Positions 10,371 to 64,000 of a DNA stretch of 64,000 bases are shown here, one piece after another. Origin of the DNA: Dictyostelium discoideum (lineage: Eukaryota); NCBI GenBank assembly GCA_000004695.1, contig CM000150.2, positions 2,080,001 through 2,144,000 of the forward strand, read 5' to 3'. Made by a program: the position numbers and the translations under genes. Positions within the stretch are counted from its first letter, which is position 1. Every line of letters begins with the position of its first letter. The notes beneath the pieces were generated by a model. That model was not told the origin of the DNA. It ran no database searches and saw only the letters and a list, made by a program, of their open reading frames with translations.

Positions 10371-11066
10371 TATGGATAGAAAAAATAAAAATAAAAACAA
10401 TTGAAAATCTTTATTATAATATAATTTTTATAATAAAATTGTAGCTAATATTGAAACTAATAGTGGCATTTTTCATCCAGATAATTCAACTTTATTTCTG
10501 ATATTTTTGGTTTGTTGAGCTGGTTGAGCTGAATCACATAGAAATCCACCTCAATAGTTATTGATTGATGAGCCAACTGTTGTAGTTTGGCCATGAAGTG
10601 ATTGGTTGAGTTTGATCATTTAATAATGGTGTGGTTGGTTGTGTATTGAGTTTGACCTAATCATAATCACAAGGTTTATAAGTGCTGAAGACATTTTGAT
10701 GATTGCTGTGGTTGTGTGGGGGCAGTTGGTGCTACTGTTTTACTAATAATAACAAGATATTAGTAACCAAACTATCTGAACCTTCATTTTTATTATTTTC
10801 ATGTTCTTATATTTGAATAATTACTGTTGTACTTGTTAAATTATTGAAAGAATGAAAGAACTGTTTGAATTGGTTTCATTACAGTTGATGGTTGTTGTGG
10901 TGGACTACTGTTACTACAAATACTATCTCAATGGATATTGTGTGCTCTTTTCGTTCGCATGAGATTTATCACTTGAAAACCACTTGAGTTTCTATTGTTG
11001 TTTGGTACTGATAGAAAATATTAAACCAGATTGTTGATCCGTTTTTTTTTCTTCCCCATCCCATTG

Positions 11067-11098
<32 letters not shown>

Positions 11099-11186
11099 AT
11101 AATTTTAGAAGAAAAAAAAATATCTTGGTCAGTTTTTTTTTTTTTTTTTTATTGGGATGAAAAAAAAAAATTTTAAAAAAATAATA

Positions 11187-13082
11187 ATGTCAACAAATAA
11201 AAAAATTAAAACAGATAATAAAAATAAAATATTTCAAGATATTATTGATTTTGAAATTTTAAAATCTATAATCAATTATTTATTAATCAGCAACAAAAAT
11301 AAAAATAATAATAAAAATAGCAATACCTGTAATCAATATAAAATTAATAAATTTTATTTTAATAGAAATGAAATATTAAATTATATATTAGTTTCAAAAA
11401 AGTGGTATAATTTTATATCATTAACAATATCAAATAATATTATTAATAATAAATTATTTGAACATTGGTTAATTAATAATAATATAAATAATTCATTTAT
11501 TGAAAATTATAATAATCAAAATCAATATGATAAAAATAATTTAATTTTTGATAGTGATAAAAAAAATAAAATTAATTTTAATAAAGAGTTTTCAATTATA
11601 AAAATCAAAGAATCAATAATCAATGATTATTTTAAATTCAATTTATTTTTACATAAGATTACAATTGATGATTTTAAAGAAATTAAAAATAAATTTGAAA
11701 ATAATCAATTACTTTATAATAGAATTGTAGTTAATATTTGTATTATTGAATTCACACCATATAATAGTGAATTATATGAATATGTATCAAATGAAAATTC
11801 AGAAACCATATCAAATTTATTTAAAATATTAGAATTAAATTGTGATAATTCGTTGGAATATGGTTATATTCCAGTTTCTGAAGAGGGAGATAAACTTAAT
11901 AACAAATACAATGGGTTATATTTAAATAATTTATCAATTGATGGTTTTGATACATATGTAGATGAAGATGAAGATACATTAAAGATTTTTAATATTTTAA
12001 AAGGTAAAAATATAATTTATGGAGTATATGATACTAAAAGTAATGAAAGTCCAACACATATCAATTATTCAGCATTATTTGATCCAGATAATTCAGGTCA
12101 ACAAGTTGAATCAATTAAAGTACAATGTTGTACTGATTATGAAGAGGCTGTTGAAGCACGTCATTTAATCAAAGTTAATCAATTTGAAAATTTACATTCA
12201 ATTACAATACCAATTAATTCATTTCAAATATTATCAAACTTATCTGAAGAAATGGAATTTCATACATTATACCGAAATAGGGCAGAATTAGGTAATTCAG
12301 GAAATATGAAATCAGAATTAAATCAAATGATCAATTCATTCATTACAAGTAAATCTTTAAAGAATTTAAATATCAAATCGGAAAATTCAATTGAACACTT
12401 TCATCCAAATCATTATTATGATGGTAATAGTGATCATGAAATTTTTGTTAATAAAATAAATGAAACTATAGAATCATATTCAAATTCATTTAAACCATTA
12501 TTTTCAGAATTAAATACATCAATTGAAAGAATTGAATTTGATTGTATGGGTTTATTAAATATCGATACATTTTCAAATTTATTAAATAATAAATCAATTA
12601 AATATTTATCTTTATATGGTAATAGTGATTTCATTGTTTACTCATCAAAACCAACTGGTGATAATGGTGGTAGTAAATTACATGAAGAAACTATTTCAAT
12701 TAATCAATATTTATTTGAAAATATATTTACATCACCATTAACACCAATTAGACATTATAAAATTAATATCAAAAATTCAAAACAAATAAAATCAATATTT
12801 AATTTAATATTAAATAATATTTTTAAATTACAATTATATTCATTAATATTTGAATTTAATGAAAACGAATTAATTTGTGAATTTGTTAAAGAATTTAAAA
12901 ATTTAATAAATAATATTTCAATACAACTACAACAAGAACAACAAGAACACCAAAAATCAAAAAACATAAATTTAAAAGAAATTAAAATTAAAATTAATAA
13001 CGATAATGAATATTCTCAAGAATTAAATAGTATTAATAATCCATATTTCACAACAGTAATAAAGTATATTTCACAAGAGTAA
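11187..13082 (+). CDS. Hypothetical Asn/Ile-rich protein (about 630 aa) of a lineage-specific paralog family; single exon
   Basis: The ORF is uninterrupted. The start is more likely the ATG at 11187 (MSTNKKIKTDNKNK...) than the ORF-track Met at 11157, because the paralogous copy begins at the equivalent position. Internal signature ITIDDFKEIKNKFENNQLLYNRIVVN. No known domain recognised. Confidence 0.55.
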   Translation: MSTNKKIKTDNKNKIFQDIIDFEILKSIINYLLISNKNKNNNKNSNTCNQYKINKFYFNRNEILNYILVSKKWYNFISLTISNNIINNKLFEHWLINNNINNSFIENYNNQNQYDKNNLIFDSDKKNKINFNKEFSIIKIKESIINDYFKFNLFLHKITIDDFKEIKNKFENNQLLYNRIVVNICIIEFTPYNSELYEYVSNENSETISNLFKILELNCDNSLEYGYIPVSEEGDKLNNKYNGLYLNNLSIDGFDTYVDEDEDTLKIFNILKGKNIIYGVYDTKSNESPTHINYSALFDPDNSGQQVESIKVQCCTDYEEAVEARHLIKVNQFENLHSITIPINSFQILSNLSEEMEFHTLYRNRAELGNSGNMKSELNQMINSFITSKSLKNLNIKSENSIEHFHPNHYYDGNSDHEIFVNKINETIESYSNSFKPLFSELNTSIERIEFDCMGLLNIDTFSNLLNNKSIKYLSLYGNSDFIVYSSKPTGDNGGSKLHEETISINQYLFENIFTSPLTPIRHYKINIKNSKQIKSIFNLILNNIFKLQLYSLIFEFNENELICEFVKEFKNLINNISIQLQQEQQEHQKSKNINLKEIKIKINNDNEYSQELNSINNPYFTTVIKYISQE

Positions 13083-13244: not shown

Positions 13245-13908
13245 CTCGTAAAGAAATGTGGATGTGAATCTGTTTCTTCTTAGTTGATGATGTAACATGA
13301 GTAGTTGATAGACCAGTAGTGGTTGATCATACAGCATTTAAAATAATTACGACATTGAATATTTGCCATCTTTAAAGTCTCTATTGCAGATCGAATGAGC
13401 CATCAAAATCCTTCAAAAAATCATTTCTTTCATTGATTAAAACTGTATTCATCGATTGCATGAAACATAATTCGACATTGTTACATTATGTTGAATCTCT
13501 ACTATTTGACCTTTATGATTAACTTTAGCTGGTCTGCAAATCCCAATATTGATGATAATGACAGAACTAAAAATATAAAAAATAAAACTTCATTTGCTAA
13601 ACCTGCTTTATCAATTAACGCTTCTGTACCTAAATTACCAATAATTGGTCGACCATAGGTTGATTTATATTTTTTTTTTTTGCTTCACTTTTAACCCAAA
13701 TGTATATATTTATTTGTTTATTTGTTTAAAATTGAAAAAATGAAAATAAAAAAAAAAAAAATAAAAAAAAAAAAGAAAAAAAAAAAAAAAAGAAAAAAAA
13801 AAAAAAAAAAAAAAAAAATAATAAAACATTCCAAAAGTAATTAACGTTTTTTTTTTTTTTTTTTTAAATTTTTTTTTTTTTTTTTTCCTTTAAACAAAGA
13901 AAACCAAC

Positions 13909-16900
13909 ATGTTTTATAAAACATTTGGTTTTTTATTTATTTATTTAATTATTTTAATTAGTGGTACTCTTTCTCAAAAAGAAATAGATAGTAGTAATGA
14001 ACAACCAGTTATTGAAGTTTTCTTAGTACCACATAGTCATTGTGATGTTGGTTGGCTTAAAACAGTTGAACAATATTATACTGAAAATGTAACATTAATT
14101 CTTAATAATGTCATTGAAACTTTAACAAAAGATAAATCAAAAAAATTTAATTGGGCTGAAATGTAAGAAAACATAATATCATTTTTTTTTTTTTTTTTTT
14201 CTAATTATTATTTATTATTTATTATTTACTAATAAAAATAAAAAATTAAAGAATTTATTTTGAAAGGTGGTGGAATGATCAAAATGAAACTTTACAAAAT
14301 CAAGTTAAACAATTAATTTCAAATAAACAATTTTATTTTGTAGGTGGTGGATGGACACAAAATGATGAAGCAATAACGGATTATCAAGCAGTAATTAATC
14401 AAATGACATTAGGACATCAATTTCTTTTCAATCAATTTGGAATTAAACCAGAGATTGGTTGGCAAATTGATCCATTTGGACCATCAACTTTAACACCAAC
14501 ATTATTTAAATTAATGGGTTTTAAATATCATGTTATTAATAGAATTGATGAAAGAATAAAATATATTTTCAATGCAACTGAAATGAATATTCCAGAATCT
14601 GGTATAATGACAATAGAAAGAGAATTTGAATTTTTATGGTACCCATCTTCAAATAATCCAAATATTTCAATATTTACTCATGTTTTAGATCATCATTATG
14701 AATCACCATCGTAATTATTAAAATATTATTATATTATATTATTAATATTTATCTAATTAATTACAAATATATATGTTAATTTGTTTTTTTTTTTAAAAAT
14801 TAAAAGTTTAACAATTGTAGATTATGAAATACCAAATTTAACATATACATCAGGATTTGATTTTGAAGGTAATCCTAAAATTAATCCACCAATTACAATT
14901 TTAAATCTTAGATTTAGAGCAGATTTATTAGTAAAGATTATTAAAGAAAGAATTGATTTATTTAGACATAATAATCTTTTATTACCATTTGGAGGTGATT
15001 TTAGATTTCAAGATTCAAAAATAGAATTTAATAATATGGATAAATTAATTAAATTTATAAATTCAAATCAAAAAACTTATGGTGTAAATATAAAATATTC
15101 AACTGTTGATGAATATTTTGAAAAAGTAATACAAGATACCAATATTAATTGGAAGGAGGATACAACAACAACAACGACAACAACAATACCAATTGGTGGT
15201 GATGAATTCCCAAAATTATCAAATTTAGATTATTTTGATTATACGAAATGTGATTATAATGATTATCAAAAGTATAAAACATGTTCATTATATTATAGTG
15301 GTTTCTTTAGTTCTTATTCAGAATTGAAACAAATTTCAAGACAATCTGATAGTTTATTAAGAATTGGTGAATTTTTATATTCATTTGCAAATTTAATATC
15401 AAATAATAATAATAATGATGATGATGATGATGATGATAATGATTTTAATATTCAATTAAAAGAAATTTCTAATATATTAGTTCAACATAGAAATGTTAGT
15501 GGAATACTTACACATCATGATGCAATTACAGGTACAGCTAAAACTAAAGTTAGAGATGATTATCTTTTAATGTTGAATCAAGTACAATCGAATACAATGA
15601 ATAATGTAATTCCTAATATTGTTGGATATCTATTATCAAATAAATCAATTCAAAATTTTGATTACTCTTGTAATAATACAATCATTATGAATTCACCACA
15701 AATTGGTGATATATTTTCAATTTCATTTACAAATAGTTTAGGATGGGATCGTTCAGAATATATTCAAATTCAATTACCACCTTCAACCATTGTAACAGTT
15801 TATAATTATAATTTGATTTCAATTCAATCTCAAATAGTTCAAAGATTTGATAAAGATAATCAAACATTTCTTTATTTTAATGTTGAAACACCATCATTAG
15901 GTATTTCAACTTATTTCATTATAATTACTTCAACCAATGATGACAATGTTGATGATGATGTTGATAAAGTATTTGGTGATGATGAATTATTAATATATCT
16001 TTTAAAAAATGGAATTTTAAGTAAACCTATTTTATCAGAGATTAGTGAAATTTCAGAATTATCATCATCATCATCATCGTCATCGTCATCATCATCGTCA
16101 CAAATTACAATCGGAAATTCGAAATTTAATTTAAATTTCAATTATTTAAATGAAAATTATAATCTTTTAACTTTAACAAGTTTTGATGATTTAATTGAAA
16201 ATGAATATTCAATACCAATTACACAAAATTATATAGAATATATTAGTGGTAATGATAATTCGTATATATTTAAACCAAGTGGTTTACCAGTTAATTTAAA
16301 ACCAGAATCTCCTAAATTTTATAAAGTTACAGGTTCATTAGTTCAAATGATTACAATTTTATATACAAATAATTGTTCACAAACTTATATAGTTTATAAT
16401 TCAACAACAACAACAACAACAACAACTACTACTACTACTACTACCAACAATGATGATTCACCACCATTAGAATTAATAAATGATGAACAATACTTTGAAA
16501 TTGATAATATTGTTGCAGCAGGTTGGAATAAAGAAATTGGTAGTCAATTTAGTAGCGAATCAATTAATAATGATAAAACTTTCTATACTAGTAATGGTTT
16601 AGAATTAATTGAAAGAAATTATAAATCATTATTTAATGATACAACAGAATTTAATATGATTGCTGGTAATTATTATCCAGTGATTAATACAATTCAAATT
16701 TTAGATAATAAATCAAAAAAACAATTAACAATATTAACAAAACAAAGTTTTGGTGCAAGTAGTCAAAATAATGGTGAATTAAATTTACTTTTTATAAGAA
16801 GATCCACTGATCAATTTGTAACACTTAATGAAACAATGAATGATATTTCCAATCCTTTAATTAAAATTAAAGTATTATTTGGTAATTCAAATTCAATTGA

Positions 16901-56448: not shown

Positions 56449-56500
<52 letters not shown>

Positions 56501-56701
56501 CAAAAATTTTTTCAACCAGATTTTAGAATTTTATACAAATTAAAAAAAATAAAAAAACTATTATCTGATTTGTTTAATTGAATTATTAAATATTTATCTA
56601 ATTTTAGTGAATCTGATAAGCTTGAGAAACTATTTAATTTCAAATATTATTTGAGTAATACTTTAAAAGTTTTTTTAGTTTGGTAAATTTTAATTTAAAA
56701 A

Positions 56702-56743
<42 letters not shown>

Positions 56744-57155
56744 TAATATTTTTTTTTTCAAAAGAATTAATTTGTTTTTTTATTTTAATTAAACCCTAAA
56801 TTATTTATCTGAAAAAAAATTTTCGCTTTCCCAAACAGTTTTATTTTTTTATTTGAAAAAAAAAGAAACAATTTTTTGAAAGCTTCCAACTCAATAGCGT
56901 CAAATCTGATCGGAGTTTCAGTTGAAAAATGGGTTTTTTTTTTTTTACAATTTTTTTTAATTTTTTTTCAATTTTTTTTTTTTTTTTCATAAACAAAATC
57001 TTTTTTATTTTACTTTTTTTTTTTTTTTTTTATTTATTGTATACTAAATTTTAGTTTTATATATATTTTTTTTTTTTTGTATATTTAATTTTTTATTTAT
57101 TTATTTTGTAATATTTTTATTTTTTTGTAAATTAATAACCACACATAAAAACAAA

Positions 57156-59957
57156 ATGTCAGAAGAACCAACCCCAGTTTCAGGTAATGACAAACAACTC
57201 TTGAACAAAGCTTGGGAAATTACCCAAAAAAAAGTAAAATATTATTATTTTTTCTATTCAAAAAAAAAAAAAAAAAAATAAATAAATAAATATAATAAAA
57301 TTTTATTAATTTTTTTTATTATTATTATTATTTTTTAAAAATATTTAGACTTTCACAGCATGGTGTAATTCACATTTACGTAAACTTGGATCATCAATTG
57401 AACAAATTGATACAGATTTTACTGATGGTATTAAATTAGCTCAATTATTAGAAGTTATTTCAAATGATCCAGTATTTAAAGTAAACAAAACACCAAAATT
57501 AAGAATTCATAATATCCAAAATGTTGGTCTCTGTTTAAAACATATTGAATCACATGGTGTTAAATTGGTTGGTATTGGTGCTGAAGAGTTAGTTGATAAA
57601 AACTTAAAGATGACTTTGGGTATGATTTGGACAATCATTCTTCGTTTTGCCATTCAAGATATTTCAATTGAAGAATTGAGTGCCAAAGAAGCCCTTTTAC
57701 TTTGGTGTCAAAGAAAGACCGAAGGTTATGACCGTGTTAAAGTTGGTAATTTCCATACCTCATTCCAAGATGGTCTTGCCTTTTGTGCTCTCATCCATAA
57801 ACATAGACCAGATTTAATCAACTTTGACTCTTTAAACAAAGATGATAAAGCTGGTAACTTACAATTGGCTTTTGATATTGCCGAAAAAGAATTGGATATC
57901 CCAAAGATGTTGGATGTTTCCGATATGCTCGATGTCGTTCGTCCAGATGAAAGATCAGTCATGACCTACGTCGCTCAATACTACCATCACTTTTCTGCCT
58001 CTAGAAAAGCTGAAACCGCCGGTAAACAAGTTGGTAAAGTTTTAGATACCTTTATGTTGTTAGAACAAACCAAATCTGATTATCTTAAAAGAGCCAATGA
58101 ACTCGTTCAATGGATTAACGATAAACAAGCATCACTTGAATCACGTGATTTTGGTGATTCCATCGAATCTGTTCAAAGTTTCATGAACGCTCATAAAGAA
58201 TATAAAAAAACCGAAAAACCACCAAAGGGTCAAGAAGTCTCTGAATTGGAAGCTATCTACAATTCATTACAAACTAAATTACGTTTAATTAAACGTGAAC
58301 CATTTGTTGCACCAGCTGGTCTCACTCCAAATGAAATCGATTCCACTTGGTCCGCTTTAGAGAAAGCTGAACAAGAACATGCTGAAGCCCTCCGTATTGA
58401 ACTCAAACGTCAAAAGAAAATTGCAGTTCTCTTACAAAAATACAATCGTATTCTCAAGAAACTCGAAAACTGGGCCACCACCAAATCTGTCTACCTCGGT
58501 TCCAATGAAACCGGTGACAGTATCACTGCTGTTCAAGCTAAATTAAAGAATTTAGAAGCTTTTGATGGTGAATGTCAATCATTGGAAGGTCAATCAAACT
58601 CTGATCTCCTCAGCATTCTTGCTCAATTAACTGAACTCAACTACAATGGTGTACCAGAACTCACTGAACGTAAAGATACATTCTTTGCTCAACAATGGAC
58701 TGGTGTTAAATCATCTGCTGAAACCTACAAAAACACTCTTTTAGCTGAACTTGAAAGACTCCAAAAGATTGAAGACTCATTGGTCGAATTCGCCAAGAGA
58801 GCCGCTCAATTAAATGTTTGGATTGAAGCTGCCGATGATCATGTATTTGATCCAATCAATGTTGACTCTGTTCAAGGTGTCCAAGAAATTCAAGAGAAAT
58901 TCGACGCTTTCCTCCACGATCAATCACAACAATTCGCTGAATTGGAAGCCCTCGCTGCTTTAACTCAACAACTCCGTGAACTCGGTCGTTCTGAAAACGA
59001 TTATTCAGTCATTTCATACGATGAACTCTCTGCCAAATGGAATAATTTATTGGCTGGTATTGAAGAACGTAAAGTTCAACTCGCCAATGAACTCACCACT
59101 CAAACCAACAACGATGTTCTTTGCCAATCATTCTCTGTTAAAGCAAATGAAATTTCAGATTATGTCCGTGTTACTTTAGATGCCATCTCACAAAACACTT
59201 CATCAGATCCACAAGAACAATTAAACAATATCCGTGCTATCATCACCGCTCATGCTGAAAAGAAACCAGAACTCGATGAATTATACACCATTGCTTCTCA
59301 ACTCGAAGAAGCTCAAGTTGTCGATAACAAACATACTCAACACAGTTTAGAATCAATTAAATTAAAATGGGATAAACTCAATACACTCGCTAAAAAGAAT
59401 GAACAAGTTGTTGAAGGTGAAATTCTTGCTAAACAATTAACTGGTGTTACTGCTGAAGAATTAAGTGAATTTAAAGGTATGTATAATTTATTTATTATAA
59501 ATATTAATTAAATTATTTAAAACTCGTCCAATGATTAATAAATAACTTTTTTTAATTAATTAACATGAACGAAAAAGCCTGCTTCTCACATTTCGATAAG
59601 GACAACGATAACAAATTAAATCGTCTTGAATTCTCCTCTTGCTTGAAGAGTATCGGAGATGAATTAACTGAAGAACAATTAAATCAAGTCATCAGTAAAA
59701 TCGATACCGATGGTAATGGTACCATTTCATTCGAAGAATTTATTGATTACATGGTTTCATCACGTAAAGGTACAGACAGCGTTGAATCAACTAAAGCTGC
59801 ATTCAAAGTTATGGCTGAGGATAAAGATTTCATTACTGAAGCTCAAATTCGTGCTGCTATCTCTGATTCTAAACAAATTGATTATTTACTCGCCAGTATG
59901 CCAGCTGTTGAAGGTGGTTTTGACTACAATTCATTTGCTGAAAAATTATACCAATAA
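57156..59957 (+). CDS. abpA: Alpha-actinin A (2 CH domains, 4 spectrin repeats, 2 EF-hands; 861 aa). Exons 57156..57233, 57349..59476, 59578..59957
   Basis: Exon 1 MSEEPTPVSGNDKQLLNKAWEITQKK, then a GTAAAA donor. Exon 2 TFTAWCNSHLRK... holds the CH domains (actin-binding KTFTAWCNSHL, LAFCALIHKHRPDLI) and spectrin repeats through ...AEELSEFK, then a GTATGT donor at 59477. Exon 3 ACFSHFDKDNDNKLNRLEFSSCL...DTDGNGTISFEEFIDYM...YQ* carries the EF-hands. Total 862 codons. Confidence 0.85.
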
Positions 59958-60089
59958 ACAAATAATTATTAATTATAAATACATTTTAAAATTATATTAA
60001 TTTAATTTAAAAAAATTAAACATATAACAATATTCTTTTCATTTTTAATAAGTTTTTTTTTTTTTTTAGTCACATAAAGTTAACTGAAC

Positions 60090-60222
60090 ATTTCAAACTT
60101 TGGGAGAATTCAAGACGATTTAATTTGTTATCCTTATCCTTATCGAAATGTGAGTAGCAGGCTTTTTCGTTCATGTTAATTAATTAATTAAAAAAAGTTA
60201 TTTATTAATCATTGGATGAGTT
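60090..60222 (-). repeat. Inverted duplicate (about 130 bp, about 93% identity) of the end of abpA intron 2 and the first 70 nt of exon 3; about 130 bp past the abpA stop
   Basis: The reverse complement of 60090..60222 is tatttaaaactcatccaatgattaataaataactttttttaattaattaattaacatgaacgaaaaagcctgctactcacatttcgataaggataaggataacaaattaaatcgtcttgaattctcc. The forward copy at 59515..59646 is ...aactcgtccaatgatt...gaaaaagcctgcttctcacatttcgataaggacaacgataacaaattaaatcgtcttgaattctcc. Confidence 0.85.
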
Positions 60223-60792
60223 TTAAATAAAATTAGGTTCTTTTTACAATTTAATTTTTTATAGTTTTCAAAAAAAAATGAATATAATCATAACTTATGT
60301 AAAACAAACACTATTATTTATGTGATTGAAAAAATAATTGTTTTAAATTTATTTATAAAAAACAAATCAACCTTTTTTTAAATTAATAATTCCAACGATA
60401 TATAATTTTAAATTAAGTTAACAATAAAACAATTCATTTTTTCGTTTTAATGTATATTTATTTAAAAGATTCAAAATGTATTACAAAAATTTATTATTTA
60501 AAATAATATCAATTTAAAATGTGTTTTTGTTGTTAGCAATGAATAAAGATTAATTCATTTATCAATGTAGTGATTTAAAAAATTTTAGACTTTTAAAATT
60601 GAAATTATGTATAAATGTCATATCCAATGTATGGCTGCATTAATTATAGATCACCAAATGGAGATGTTATTAAAAATCTTAAAGCATTCAAATTTAATAA
60701 AGATGAATAATTAAAGGTAGAAGCACTGGTTATAATGTATGATTCTTTGATTAAATCATTCAATAGAGGTGTTTTTTTTCTTTTTGGTGATA

Positions 60793-61030
60793 TTACAAAT
60801 TTAAGTAGAGAATTGCCAGAACTTGAAGGTTTAGGGTGGTTGGATTATTTGTTTTTTTACAAAACATAAGTGAAAATGGATTTTGATCGTTGCAACGATA
60901 TCCACATTCTATTGTTTTATATTGACATTTTTGACCATAATATGCTGGTGCACATTGACATTGACCATCTAAACAACAAAGACCATTACCAGAACAACCA
61001 GTATTAAAGCAATTACCAAATGAAGGTTTA
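60793..61030 (-). pseudogene. Orphan EGF-like-domain coding fragment with no start codon or splice context
   Basis: The minus strand reads KPSFGNCFNTGCSGNGLCCLDGQCQCAPAYYGQKCQYKTIECGYRCNDQNPFSLMFCKKTNNPTTLNLQVLAILYLNL*. This is an EGF/tenascin-type Cys pattern, related to the CSGNGICDSSLNCICNKGYTSYDC repeat of the large gene at 61889..64000. Confidence 0.3.
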
Positions 61031-61133
61031 TATCAATAAAATAATAAAATAAATAAATAAATAAAAAAAAAATTAAAAAGTTTTAGAAAATAATTAAAAT
61101 TTAAAAAACTAATTTTGATAAAAAGGAAAGTAT

Positions 61134-61199
61134 GTATGTATGTATGTATGTATGTATGTATGTATGTATGTATGTATGTATGTATGTATGTATGTATGA
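61134..61199. repeat. (GTAT)n microsatellite, about 16 units
   Basis: gtatgtatgtatg... is continuous. A shorter second run lies at about 61808..61832. Confidence 0.95.
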
Positions 61200-61560
61200 T
61201 TTATAAATAACTTTTTTTAATTAATTAATTAACATGAACAAAAAAGCCTGCTTCTCGCATTTCTACAAGGATAAAGACAACAAATTAAATCGTCTTGAGT
61301 TTAGTTCTAGCTTGAAGAGTATCGGAGATGAATTAACTGAAGAATAATTAAATCAAGTCATCAGTAAAATCGACACGGATGGTAATGGTACCATTTCATT
61401 AGAAGAATTTATTGATTACATGGTTTCATCACGTAAAGGTACAGACAGCGTTGAATCAAATAAATGCTGCTATCCCTGATTCTAAACAAATTGATTATTT
61501 ACTTGCCAGCATGCCAGCTGTTGAAGGTGGTTTTGATTACAATTCATTTGCTGAAAATTA
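61195..61560 (+). pseudogene. Degenerate direct copy of abpA exon 3 (EF-hand exon) with its upstream intron end. It has a premature TAA and an internal deletion of about 75 bp
   Basis: ...taattaattaattaacatgaacaaaaaagcctgcttctcgcatttctacaaggataaagacaacaaattaaatcgtcttgagtttagttctagcttgaagagtatcggagatgaattaactgaagaaTAAttaaatcaagtcatcagtaaaatcgacacggatggtaatggtaccatttcat... The stretch corresponding to KAAFKVMAEDKDFITEAQIRAAIS has been deleted. It ends ...gctgaaaattattaataa. Confidence 0.85.
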
Positions 61561-61888
61561 TTAATAAATTAATAAAATAAATAAATAAAAAAAAAAAAAA
61601 TTAAAAAGTTTTTGAATAAATATTTAATAAAAATGAAAATAATTTTTTATTTTTAGTTTTTAAAGAAAAGGATTTTTTTTTTTATTTAATCAATAAAACT
61701 TTTAAAAAAACCTAATTTCTTTAGTAAATATTGAATAAAGAAATATTAATCCCTTTCTTTATTGTACCCATTTTTTTTTTTTTTTTTTTTTATATGTTGA
61801 TATTATTTTTATGTATGTATGTATGAATGTATGTGCCAATGTGCACTTAAAGTATTATTACAAGATTATTTAATTGTTGATATGTTTG

Positions 61889-63843
61889 TTATTGTGTTTT
61901 ACAACCTTCACCAACTTTAATAGTATTAAATTTCATTCCATTGTATCTATCATCCAATTCTTCTTCTTCCTCTTCATTTTTGGTTTGTATTGGATTATCT
62001 TTTATTTCTAAATTATTATTATTTCTTTCAATTTCAATATTATCCCTAGTTGAAGTTGTTGAAGTCGAAGGTACAGAGGTTGAATGGGATCTTGGTTTTG
62101 ATATGATTTCTATATTTGGCATTGAATTATTTGGATTATCAACTACAGTATTATAACGTGGTGGTGATTGTGGCATTGGTTGTACTGGTGATGAATCATT
62201 TCTTGTTGTTCTATAGTTATCAACAATATCATTATAATTATAATCTGGTGATAAGGTAATACTTGAAGTCATTGGATTTTCACCTAAATATATTCTTTCA
62301 TGTGATTTATTATTATTATTATCATCATCATCATTATTATTATTATTATTATTATGTTGATTTTGTTGTTGTTTTTGATTTTGTTGTTGTTGTAGTGGAT
62401 TTATTACCATTACATCTCTTGAAGATTTTCTTAATGCTAAATTTATATTTGCAATTGTTCTTTCAACTTTATTACGTTGGTGAATGAAAATTAATGAACC
62501 TAATAATATAACAATACCTAATACACCACAAGCACCAATGAAATAATATTTCCATTTTGAAGAATCTTGATCATTGGTTATTGAATTACGATTTATAGAA
62601 TCAGTATTTGAATGTAAAACAAAGGATGAACCAATTTCAAATGAATTTGAATTACTAATATTTTTAAATGGAATTTTAATTGAAATGAATGCTGTATTAT
62701 TATTAATTATTGGTTTTTGTTGATTCTCTAATAGAGTTGATGTTGCAACTAAATTTGTTAATTCAAATGAATTTGAAAATTTAAATTTATTTGCCAATGT
62801 AAATAATAGGTAATTTGATTCATCCTTTTCTCTAATTAAAATGTAACCATTATCAACTATTTCCGATTCAATTTCTTTTCTACTATCAATTGATTTAATT
62901 TGAAATAGAAATTCAATCATATCATTTCCATCACCTCCAACAGTTGTTGATATTAAAGATTTTATTAAATTATTAATTTCTAATGAAACAATTACAGAAT
63001 TATTTGATATTGGTAAATTTGTACCATAATAATCATAAAATGAATTTGTTGTCGTTGTTGTCGTTTGATTATAAATATAATTTGATTTAATTGAAAATTT
63101 TGAAAATATATTATCATCATTTGTACCACTAAATTCAAAACCATTTTCATTTTTAATTTGATTTTTATTTGTTAAAGATGAAATTGGTATTGTTAATGAT
63201 TGAAATCCTAATGAATTTAAAATTCTAATATGTGAAACTGAAATAATATAACCATTATTTTTATTTAATGTCAATTTAAATGAATTAAAATCATTTGTTT
63301 CTGGTTTTATTATTGTAGTACTTTCTAAATCAACAAATTTAATTGAACAATCATATGATGTATAACCTTTATTACAAATACAATTCAATGAAGAATCACA
63401 AATTCCATTACCACTACAATCATTATTACCATTTAATTGATAATTATTATTATTGAACCAACTTTTTGATGGACATTTTTTCCAAGATGGTAAAAATGGG
63501 AATAAATTATTTAATGAATCACTTGTTACATTACCAATTCTAATATAGGTTAGTGTTGATGATAAATATGAATTTCTAATATAATTAACATTTAAATCAC
63601 ATGTTAATTTTTTATCACTTAATAGTTTAACATTTGGACAATTTTGATTTAATAATATAACTTTAATATCATTACTATTTAAATCTATATTAAAATGGTT
63701 ACCTGATATTGTTACTTTTGAAACACCACTACTTGAATATAAATCAACTTGAGTAATTGTTTCAATAGTTGGTTTTGGAATTCTAAATAAAACTTTTTTA
63801 ATAATATTCTTTTCATCAATTATAATATCATTATCATTATTAA

Positions 63844-63885
<42 letters not shown>

Positions 63886-64000
63886 AAGTGGTTTTATCAG
63901 TTGTATTTACTGAAATTAAATAACCTTCTCTATCATTTGATAAATTGATTAAACTATTTAATGATTTTGGTATTGTTAATTTAAAAGTTATACTTCTACT
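61889..64000 (-). CDS. Large EGF-like-repeat type I membrane protein. The 3' portion and stop are in the window; the 5' end lies beyond 64000
   Basis: The minus-strand ORF is open from the window edge: ...CSGNGICDSSLNCICNKGYTSYDCSIKF... (EGF-like), extracellular Asn-rich region, TM helix YYFIGACGVLGIVILLGSLIFI, then a cytoplasmic tail with poly-Q/poly-N and PPxY-like SPPRY, ending ...KVGEGCKTQ* at 61889. Confidence 0.65.

Follow-up and report, generated by a model that had tools for sequence, protein, structure and literature searches.

The 3' end of the Dictyostelium discoideum alpha-actinin gene abpA raises the question of why the junction between its last intron and last exon is found again, in reverse orientation, shortly behind the stop codon. 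An initial annotation, made from the sequence, had proposed that the two copies could pair as a long RNA hairpin over the 3' splice site, with an inert duplication remnant as the fallback explanation. The whole stretch of DNA that was analyzed, 64,000 nt in length, is referred to here as the window.

Copies of the last intron/exon junction of abpA

The spliced translation of the gene is 100% identical to D. discoideum alpha-actinin, which identifies it as abpA. Both introns were confirmed by two spliced RNA-seq contigs (L002 and L003), in which splicing is correct. The gene and the elements that immediately follow it are arranged in the window as listed.

57156-57233, plus strand: abpA exon 1
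57349-59476, plus strand: abpA exon 2
59477-59577, plus strand: abpA intron 2, 101 nt, phase 1, GTATGT...AAAAAG, spliced out in RNA-seq contigs L002 and L003
59513-59648, plus strand: forward arm, made up of 65 nt from the end of intron 2, the acceptor AG and 59 nt from the start of the exon, with lower identity up to about exon nt 71
59576-59577, plus strand: intron 2 acceptor AG
59578-59957, plus strand: copy A, which is the functional EF-hand exon 3 of abpA
59953-59958, plus strand: AATAAA poly(A) signal, read from the sequence, overlapping the stop codon
59955-59957, plus strand: abpA stop codon TAA
59958-60091, plus strand: flank F, the ancestral abpA 3' flank, conserved in all four D. 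discoideum complex lineages and duplicated after copy C
60092-60234, minus strand: copy B, the inverted partial intron 2/exon 3 junction, with its core at 60103-60230

Comparison of the window with itself by blastn confirmed that an inverted copy of the junction between intron 2 and the last exon lies past the stop codon. Positions 59513-59636 pair with 60230-60103 in an alignment of 128 columns that has 93.75% identity and a single 4-nt gap (E 1e-51). A repeat search delimited the arms as 59534-59647 and 60092-60205 (114 nt, 87%, 444 nt apart) and, as a second pair, 59513-59563 and 60180-60230 (51 nt, 98%). The spacing of 445 bp given in the initial annotation fits the first of these definitions; the high-identity arms are 466 nt apart, and copy B starts 135 nt past the abpA TAA. 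The only further match to the repeat in the 64-kb window is a third copy, C, and the repeat is therefore no chance product of AT-rich DNA. An independent D. discoideum assembly (GCA_054883475.1, locus L001) is 99.97% identical over 57000-64000 and contains the same copies, so that an assembly artefact can be dismissed. Copy B comprises 65 nt of intron 2 and 59-70 nt of exon 3; it spans only about 24 abpA codons and thus cannot encode the parental product. Its minus strand holds a 34-codon ORF for an EF-hand fragment (60070-60174), and an exact-protein look-up of this ORF returned no record and no contigs.

Copy C had been missed in the earlier reading. It lies beyond several unrelated segments, and the region downstream of copy B is composed of the following features.

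60235-60519, no strand: X1, AT-rich, which came or went with B; present in AX4, L011 and L010, missing in L009
60622-60794, plus strand: orphan gene remnant, corresponding to an intact 496-codon ORF in L011 (10377-11867); L009 also holds a remnant
60796-61017, minus strand: decayed coding fragment of EGF-like (tenascin/teneurin) type; its identity to the EGF region of the downstream gene is 30%
61130-61198, no strand: (GTAT)17 microsatellite abutting copy C
61196-61709, plus strand: copy C, a direct decayed copy including the intron 2 3' end, pseudo-exon 3 and a copy of flank F
61199-61246, plus strand: intron 2 part of copy C, 47 nt
61247, plus strand: start of pseudo-exon 3 in copy C
61889-64000, minus strand: downstream convergent gene, which runs off the window and encodes an EGF-containing membrane protein (957 aa in the L001 annotation)

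Copy C is direct and degenerate, with 61196-61697 equivalent to 59531-60078 at 75.7% identity with gaps and at 90% ungapped across the first 262 nt. It takes in 47 nt of intron 2, exon 3 in full and at least 120 nt of flank, and its reading frame is broken by a TAA (61345-61347) and shifted by a deletion of 56 nt. Exact-protein look-ups gave no record and no contigs for a 37-codon ORF in C, and no record for an exon-3 ORF with an intronic ATG. The 496-codon ORF of L011 was searched against Pfam, PDB and protein sequences, which yielded no family and no homologue beyond itself; a resemblance to a GIY-YIG nuclease found no support in these searches.

Age of intron 2 and distribution of the copies

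The coding sequence is unbroken between SEFK and ACF/Y, without intron 2, in five of five further species (D. citrinum, D. purpureum, T. lacteum, C. fasciculata and A. subglobosum), and the intron is carried by all four lineages of the D. discoideum complex (AX4, L011, L009 and L010). By this comparison, intron 2 is a recent gain that is specific to the D. discoideum complex and occurred after the split from D. citrinum. The same intron (DDB_G0268632, gene positions 2322-2422) is listed in Table S1 of Ma et al. 2015 (PMC4683709) among 40 putative D. discoideum gains. Whereas that study relied on D. purpureum and D. fasciculatum, the putative gain is confirmed here with D. citrinum, T. lacteum and A. 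subglobosum added. A source or paralogous sequence was reported there for only two introns, under an 80% coverage filter (PMC4683709), and the partial copies of intron 2 in B and C are absent from the study. The portion of the intron present amounts to 64% in B and 47% in C, and both would fail the 80% filter.

The distribution of the copies was followed along a tree of exon 2, which has the topology ((AX4,L011),(L009,L010)) with D. citrinum as the outgroup. D. citrinum and D. purpureum possess a single exon 3, no intron 2 and no extra copies. Copy B is present in AX4, L011 and L010 and absent in L009 and in both of these species. Its outer junctions, CAAAGTTTGAAATGTTC.GTTAAC on one side and ACCT.ATTTTATT on the other, are shared by the diverged lineages AX4, L011 and L010, and B therefore arose once. 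In an alignment of flank F from AX4, L010, L009 and D. citrinum, the flank of L009 joins directly to the sequence equivalent to 60520 onward; this lineage is without B plus about 430 nt, and its abpA gene is intact with intron 2. L009 has lost B. The natural B-less lineage is represented by assembly GCA_054859205.1, and a B-bearing one by GCA_054859235.1. Copy C is restricted to D. discoideum proper, with a different truncation in L011 and no counterpart in L009 or L010. Together with the downstream gene it is colinear with exon 3, the flank and the downstream gene of D. citrinum, in which the latter gene is only 288 bp away from abpA. A point against a plain relic is that B has persisted in three of the four lineages, whereas the spacer around it turns over by kilobase-scale indels. 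Rooting of A, B and C with the outgroups produced conflicting shared derived sites, which is attributed to the erasure of signal by gene conversion, and similarity was therefore not used to order the B and C duplications.

Complex rearrangements of the DUP-TRP/INV-DUP type are generated by template switching, and the abpA copies resemble them in that they are ordered direct, inverted, direct, with the inverted fragment at the duplication boundary. A, B and C might accordingly stem from one complex replicative event involving serial template switching of the FoSTeS/MMBIR type. In favour of such an event, B lies exactly where the flank homology between A and C breaks off. The sequence that follows B is also similar, in reverse complement, to the end of the flank by C (AAATTAGGTT...; 13/1000 shuffles as good), as if taken from a tandem-duplication junction. 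When spacer X (60231-60620) was compared with the segment separating C from the downstream gene, the sole match was a stretch of 27 nt directly after B (p ~0.013). Nevertheless, the copies differ in phylogenetic distribution, with B in both clades and C only in D. discoideum proper, and neither B nor X1 is found in the flank of C, which agrees with the arrangement in L009, where B is missing. In addition, B and C are separated by some 1 kb of DNA that is unrelated to them and holds the remnants of two other genes, and the sizes differ from those of DUP-TRP/INV-DUP rearrangements by orders of magnitude. A single event is thus regarded as very improbable. Spacer X was also considered as an inverted copy of flank F, and this match was no better than shuffles.

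The youth of intron 2, for which no source was found, allows the reverse relationship to be considered, in which B was the donor of the intron. An inverted, intron-less exon fragment would have been inserted in the 3' flank, and later ectopic conversion from B to the gene would have overrun the homology and brought in about 65 nt of flanking DNA as the 3' part of the intron. Conversion between A and B appears to occur (see below), and outside the gene the 3' part of intron 2 is found only in B and C, which may be copies rather than sources. When compared in reverse complement, the ancestral flank at ~60540-60585 is also similar to this 3' part (34/45 matches), but the similarity is marginal (44/1000 shuffles as good, p ~0.04 uncorrected) and, as one of eight tests, not significant after correction. 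The intron-exon junction is identical in all three copies, which is explained more simply if the intron came first and was copied later. Moreover, L009 has intron 2 without B, and the 5' part of the intron, which contains a TACTAAC box in L009, L010 and L011, is without a counterpart next to B. A role of B as the donor is therefore considered highly unlikely. An origin of intron 2 by AGGT tandem duplication as described by Rogers was examined separately and rejected, as the similarity of the exon-2 end to the intron end was no better than shuffles. The 5' end of the intron begins GTATGTAT, which may be compared with the (GTAT)17 microsatellite next to copy C.

Concerted evolution of the arms

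Arms A and B evolve in concert despite a duplication that predates the split of the lineages. The two arms of one genome are 96.8% identical in AX4 and 96.8% identical in L011, whereas all four cross-comparisons between AX4 and L011 yield only 90.3-90.4%. At thirteen columns the two arms have changed jointly, and there is no site at which all A copies differ from all B copies. In the few genomes compared, the co-varying columns extend over 32-117 in L011, which is almost the whole core, and over 40-97 in L010. These spans would fit one long conversion tract in each lineage. All four arm mismatches of L011 are located in the exon part. In L010 the arms are 88% identical, with 15 mismatches and 2 gaps in 125 nt, and the 'AG' of copy B is now GG. 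Exchange also appears to involve copy C, as an AAA->AGG double substitution is limited to exon 3 and copy C of L011, which points to conversion between A and C.

Gene conversion is the best account of the concerted arms and would be the mechanism that homogenizes them. The 13 changes on both arms would be equally expected from selection for base pairing, and at the level of sequence the two processes leave the same trace. The EF-hand exon 3 has diverged roughly four-fold faster than the remainder of abpA; this fast divergence coincides with ongoing conversion between the exon and its two pseudo-copies.

Taken with the distribution of the copies, these observations suggest that B is probably an ordinary relic, left over from local duplications of the abpA 3' end and kept gene-like by gene conversion. 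B would represent a non-coding fragment of an unprocessed pseudogene, about 140 bp in size, that combines the 3' end of intron 2 with the beginning of exon 3. It was presumably copied once, in reverse, into the flank 3' of abpA before the lineages of the D. discoideum complex diverged from their common ancestor. The direct pseudo-exon C, 1.2 kb further on, would have resulted from a second duplication or from the remaining half of the rearrangement that produced B, and repeated intrachromosomal gene conversion between the arms would keep B, and likewise C, similar to the gene. For both B and C, the homology includes non-coding sequence, the product is not encoded and the outgroups are devoid of the copy, as is characteristic of pseudogene fragments. 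The fallback explanation of an inert duplication remnant is thus favoured by copy C and the evolutionary context, except that, as DNA, the remnant is not entirely inert, since it exchanges sequence with the gene.

Ectopic conversion with a parent gene is known from CYP21A2 and its unprocessed pseudogene CYP21A1P, and the palindromes of the Y chromosome undergo arm-to-arm conversion. The abpA locus is comparable to these systems in that its partial copies, which include intron sequence, are incomplete or disabled and sit near the parent gene, that its arms are more alike within than between genomes, and that mutations are common to the gene and the pseudo-copies. Unlike in these systems, the copies are tiny (140 bp and 500 bp), and the sequence copied here includes the acceptor of an intron no older than the species complex. 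We know of no phenotype or disease that is linked to the abpA copies. The locus provides a compact natural case in which the gain of an intron can be dated to the interval between the D. citrinum split and the D. discoideum complex, partial copies of the acceptor junction adjoin the gene beyond the reach of the published 80% filter, and a functional exon would be engaged in ongoing conversion with two pseudo-copies.

Transcript end and predicted hairpin

The RNA-seq contigs of abpA end at 59954 and, for the longest (L002), at 59979, which is 21 nt past the AATAAA and 113 nt short of the start of copy B. Position 59979 is a lower bound for the 3' end rather than a mapped poly(A) site, since AT-rich 3' UTRs assemble poorly and a read-through pre-mRNA would be rare and unassembled. 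The contig ends suggest that the poly(A) site is situated near 59979. As the abpA mRNA would be cleaved and polyadenylated upstream of B, copy B most likely has no role in the splicing or expression of abpA.

The claim that an RNA containing both arms would pair was borne out by structure prediction. The predicted fold of 59477-60260 has a free energy of -255 kcal/mol compared with -129 +/- 7 for shuffles (z -17), and the arms form one long stem from end to end. In a read-through abpA pre-mRNA, B could pair with the acceptor region of intron 2 and either mask the 3' splice site and tune the splicing of the new intron, or generate about 130 bp of dsRNA that Dicer-like enzymes would process into siRNAs against abpA. 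D. discoideum has Dicer-like, RdRP and Argonaute genes, the repeat is kept in three of the four lineages, and the 13 positions that changed on both sides preserve pairing. The hairpin function proposed in the initial annotation nevertheless remains unsupported: the assembled transcripts stop before B, just past a canonical AATAAA, L009 lost B with no visible consequence for abpA, and the arms in L010 have decayed. Conversion accounts for the co-variation without selection, and it also appears to act between A and C; as direct repeats, these two are unable to form a hairpin. An Rfam scan of 56500-64000 revealed no family matches, and a literature search on abpA and DDB_G0268632 in connection with small RNAs, antisense transcription or hairpins retrieved nothing specific. 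A functional hairpin is thus judged to be unlikely, and B as a regulatory element is probably of no consequence. The single sub-threshold Rfam hit, mir-297 (RF04217) at 61132-61199, scored 39.9 bits against a threshold of 90 and was discarded as an artefact of the low-complexity (GTAT)17 repeat.

Inverted duplicates of a target gene are the raw material of hpRNA and endo-siRNA loci, as exemplified by the Drosophila hpRNAs and young plant miRNA genes. The abpA region resembles such loci in its inverted partial gene duplicate and its long, near-perfect stem, which is predicted to be very stable. In contrast to these loci, a hairpin at abpA would require that transcription of the target gene itself extend in the 3' direction through both arms, the transcript evidence stops before the second arm, and the copy was lost in L009. 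To our knowledge, no small RNAs have been described from the abpA region.

A small chance is also given to the broader proposition that B and its flank served as the template that wrote the 3' two-thirds of intron 2 by ectopic conversion, or that the co-varying stem is a selected RNA structure regulating the splicing of the young intron. If B was a template, an inverted partial duplicate beside a gene could seed a new spliceosomal intron. The natural differences between the lineages, in which B is present or lost and C is present or absent, make the ideas of hairpin and conversion testable without engineering. The partial triplication of the abpA 3' region also calls for caution in the design of knock-ins, probes and primers.

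Pseudo-copies of the abpA 3' end

The repeats downstream of abpA constitute a small family of unprocessed pseudo-copies of the 3' end of this gene, one inverted and one direct, that is found only in the D. discoideum complex and that gene conversion would keep similar to abpA. Such unprocessed pseudo-copies with gene conversion are a well-known kind of element. Of most interest is that the copies bear the junction of an intron that is demonstrably young and that they exchange sequence with a functional exon (exon 3), whose divergence is about four times as fast as that of the remaining gene. In a protein search the spliced abpA product matched D. discoideum AX4 alpha-actinin A (P0001) at 100% identity, and both predicted introns are exactly removed in RNA-seq contigs (L002, L003) from public runs. 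The D. discoideum window is AT-rich in composition and contains the following features at this locus:

57156-59957, abpA, with exons 57156-57233, 57349-59476 and 59578-59957
59513-59636, forward arm (A): last 65 nt of intron 2, acceptor AG (59576-59577) and first 59 nt of exon 3
59953-59958, AATAAA, overlapping the abpA stop codon
60092-60234, inverted, copy B, starting 135 nt past the abpA stop codon
60622-60794, orphan gene remnant, 172 bp in AX4
60796-61017, minus strand, decayed EGF-like (tenascin/teneurin-type) coding fragment
61130-61198, (GTAT)17 microsatellite, adjoining copy C on its upstream side
61196-61709, direct, copy C: 47 nt of the intron 2 3' end, the complete exon 3 and roughly 120 nt of 3' flank

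The inverted copy of the abpA intron/exon junction past the stop codon, which was described in the initial annotation, is real. Positions 59513-59636 align to 60230-60103 with 93.75% identity over 128 columns and one 4-nt gap (E 1e-51), and lower similarity extends to about nucleotide 71 of exon 3. Besides copy C, which had been overlooked, no further match to the inverted repeat was detected in the 64-kb window. The inverted repeat is not an assembly artefact, because an independently assembled D. discoideum genome (L001) has the identical copy arrangement with 99.97% identity over 7 kb.

Copy C is dead, as it is disabled by an in-frame TAA (61345-61347) and a 56-nt deletion. Because intron 2 starts with GTATGTAT, akin to the GTAT microsatellite that abuts copy C, the 5' splice site may originally have been part of this copy, and the (GTAT) repeat may have expanded afterwards. 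An Rfam match of the microsatellite to mir-297 was sub-threshold and discarded as spurious. Approximately 1 kb of unrelated DNA with the two gene remnants separates B from C. In L011, one of three further lineages of the complex, the spacer downstream of abpA holds the orphan gene as an intact 496-codon ORF (10377-11867; annotated as hypothetical protein ACTFIR_005015). Searches with this ORF found no Pfam domain or PDB relative and, among 5.8 billion proteins, no homologue but itself. In a second lineage, L009, the gene is likewise reduced to a remnant of about 170 bp. The EGF-like fragment shares 30% identity over 70 residues with the EGF region (63218-63418) of the convergent downstream gene for a membrane protein, and its counterpart is absent from L009 and the third lineage, L010.

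Origin of intron 2 and of the copies

The abpA loci of other genomes were obtained via protein search, cluster listing and contig records. At SEFK|AC(F/Y) the coding sequence is unbroken in D. citrinum, D. purpureum, Tieghemostelium lacteum, Cavenderia fasciculata and Acytostelium subglobosum, and this comparison of five dictyostelids identifies intron 2 as a lineage-specific gain. Ma et al. 2015 already list it (DDB_G0268632 2322-2422) among 40 putative gains and report no source for it (PMC4683709, Table S1). Their BLAST filter required 80% intron coverage (PMC4683709), a threshold that neither B (64%) nor C (47%) would reach. Intron 2 measures 101 nt in AX4 (59477-59577), about 149 nt in L009 (8351-8499) and L010 (8316-8464) and about 535 nt in L011 (8327-8863), where (AAT)n and (AAATAAAC)n-type repeats have lengthened it. 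These three lineages carry a TACTAAC box about 60-70 nt before the acceptor that is missing from the short intron of AX4.

Occurrence of intron 2 and the pseudo-copies in the D. discoideum complex
Intron 2: present in AX4/L001, L011, L010 and L009
Inverted copy B: present in AX4/L001, L011 and L010; absent from L009
Direct copy C: present in AX4/L001 and, differently truncated, in L011; absent from L010 and L009

Exon 2 yields the tree ((AX4,L011),(L009,L010)); its divergence is 1.6-1.7% inside a clade, about 3% from one clade to the other and 13% relative to D. citrinum. As the diverged outer junctions of B are the same across AX4, L011 and L010, B has a single origin that predates the split between the two clades. 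In L009 the ancestral abpA 3' flank (59958-60091) is joined directly to sequence from 60520 onward, so this lineage has lost B together with about 430 nt. The L009 locus is rearranged, because a retrotransposon pol gene (13274-14879; RVT_1, RNase H and integrase domains) replaces the usual EGF-membrane gene, which was not found within 6 kb. Only one exon 3, and no additional copy, is present at the abpA locus of D. citrinum and D. purpureum. In D. citrinum, abpA is 288 bp from the start of the downstream convergent gene, and exon 3 with this gene is colinear with copy C and the downstream gene of the window.

The direct-inverted-direct order of A, B and C would suit their generation in a one-step template-switching event, as would the 27 nt right after B (60229-60256, AAATTAGGTTCTTTTTACAATTTAATT), which are similar to the reverse-complemented end of the flank adjoining C (61692-61718; an equally good score in 13 of 1000 shuffles, p ~0.013). 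The counterpart in L011 is a better match (TTAAAAACACCTAATTT versus TTAAAAAAACCTAATTT). Copying of B from an old tandem-duplication junction would fit this similarity. The one-step event does not fit the different distributions of B and C or the flank of C, which lacks B. It is attractive to consider B as the donor of intron 2, via run-on gene conversion, since the intron has no known source, but the sole basis for this is a marginal similarity (p ~0.04, uncorrected). Derivation of intron 2 from a tandem duplication of an AGGT site was tested and not supported.

Probable gene conversion and the RNA hairpin question

Core identity between arms A and B is 96.8% in AX4, 96.8% in L011 and 88.0% in L010; all four AX4-L011 cross-comparisons give 90.3-90.4%. 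The B core is thus closer to the gene arm of the same genome than to its own orthologue, even though B predates the lineage split. Of the core columns compared in the three genomes, 88 are invariant, 13 have changed together in both arms, 2 partly co-vary and 20 are mismatched in one or two genomes, and no site distinguishes A copies from B copies. This alignment pattern bears the signature of gene conversion between the arms. An AAA to AGG double substitution occurs only in exon 3 and copy C of L011, and conversion evidently links abpA and copy C as well. Polarised sites conflict on the order of duplications, for which sequence similarity is an unreliable guide because conversion scrambles the signal.

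The initial annotation had also raised a potential long RNA hairpin over the 3' splice site. Folding of 59477-60260 predicts a long stem (-255 kcal/mol versus -129 +/- 7 for shuffles, z -17), and for a single RNA spanning this region and holding both arms the modelled physical premise holds. A functional hairpin, in which B would pair with abpA RNA, is nevertheless quite unlikely, though rare read-through pre-mRNA may occur. The longest assembled transcript stops at 59979, 21 nt past AATAAA and 113 nt before B, although transcript contig ends do not equal poly(A) sites. L009 without B still has an intact abpA with intron 2, the L010 arms differ by 15 mismatches, and co-variation extends to direct copy C, which is incapable of hairpin pairing with the gene. 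The biological premise is not supported and the available evidence leans against it.

Divergence of exon 3

Within the complex, divergence of exon 3 (59578-59957) is about four times that of exon 2 (57349-59476), with 6.1% versus 1.6% between AX4 and L011 and 6.8% versus 1.7% between L009 and L010. The alpha-actinins of AX4 and L011 differ at 12 amino acids, six of them among the last 126 residues. The fast divergence of exon 3 may stem from conversion by the pseudo-copies, yet L009 has neither copy today. Some exon 3 states are shared across the clades as a mosaic; the Ser codon at 59649-59651, for example, is TCA in the gene of D. citrinum, L010 and L011 and AGT in AX4, L009 and AX4 copy C. 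The corresponding codon of B is TGT wherever this copy occurs (AX4, L011, L010), possibly a step in the switch of a serine codon from TCN to AGY that the pseudo-copy has preserved.
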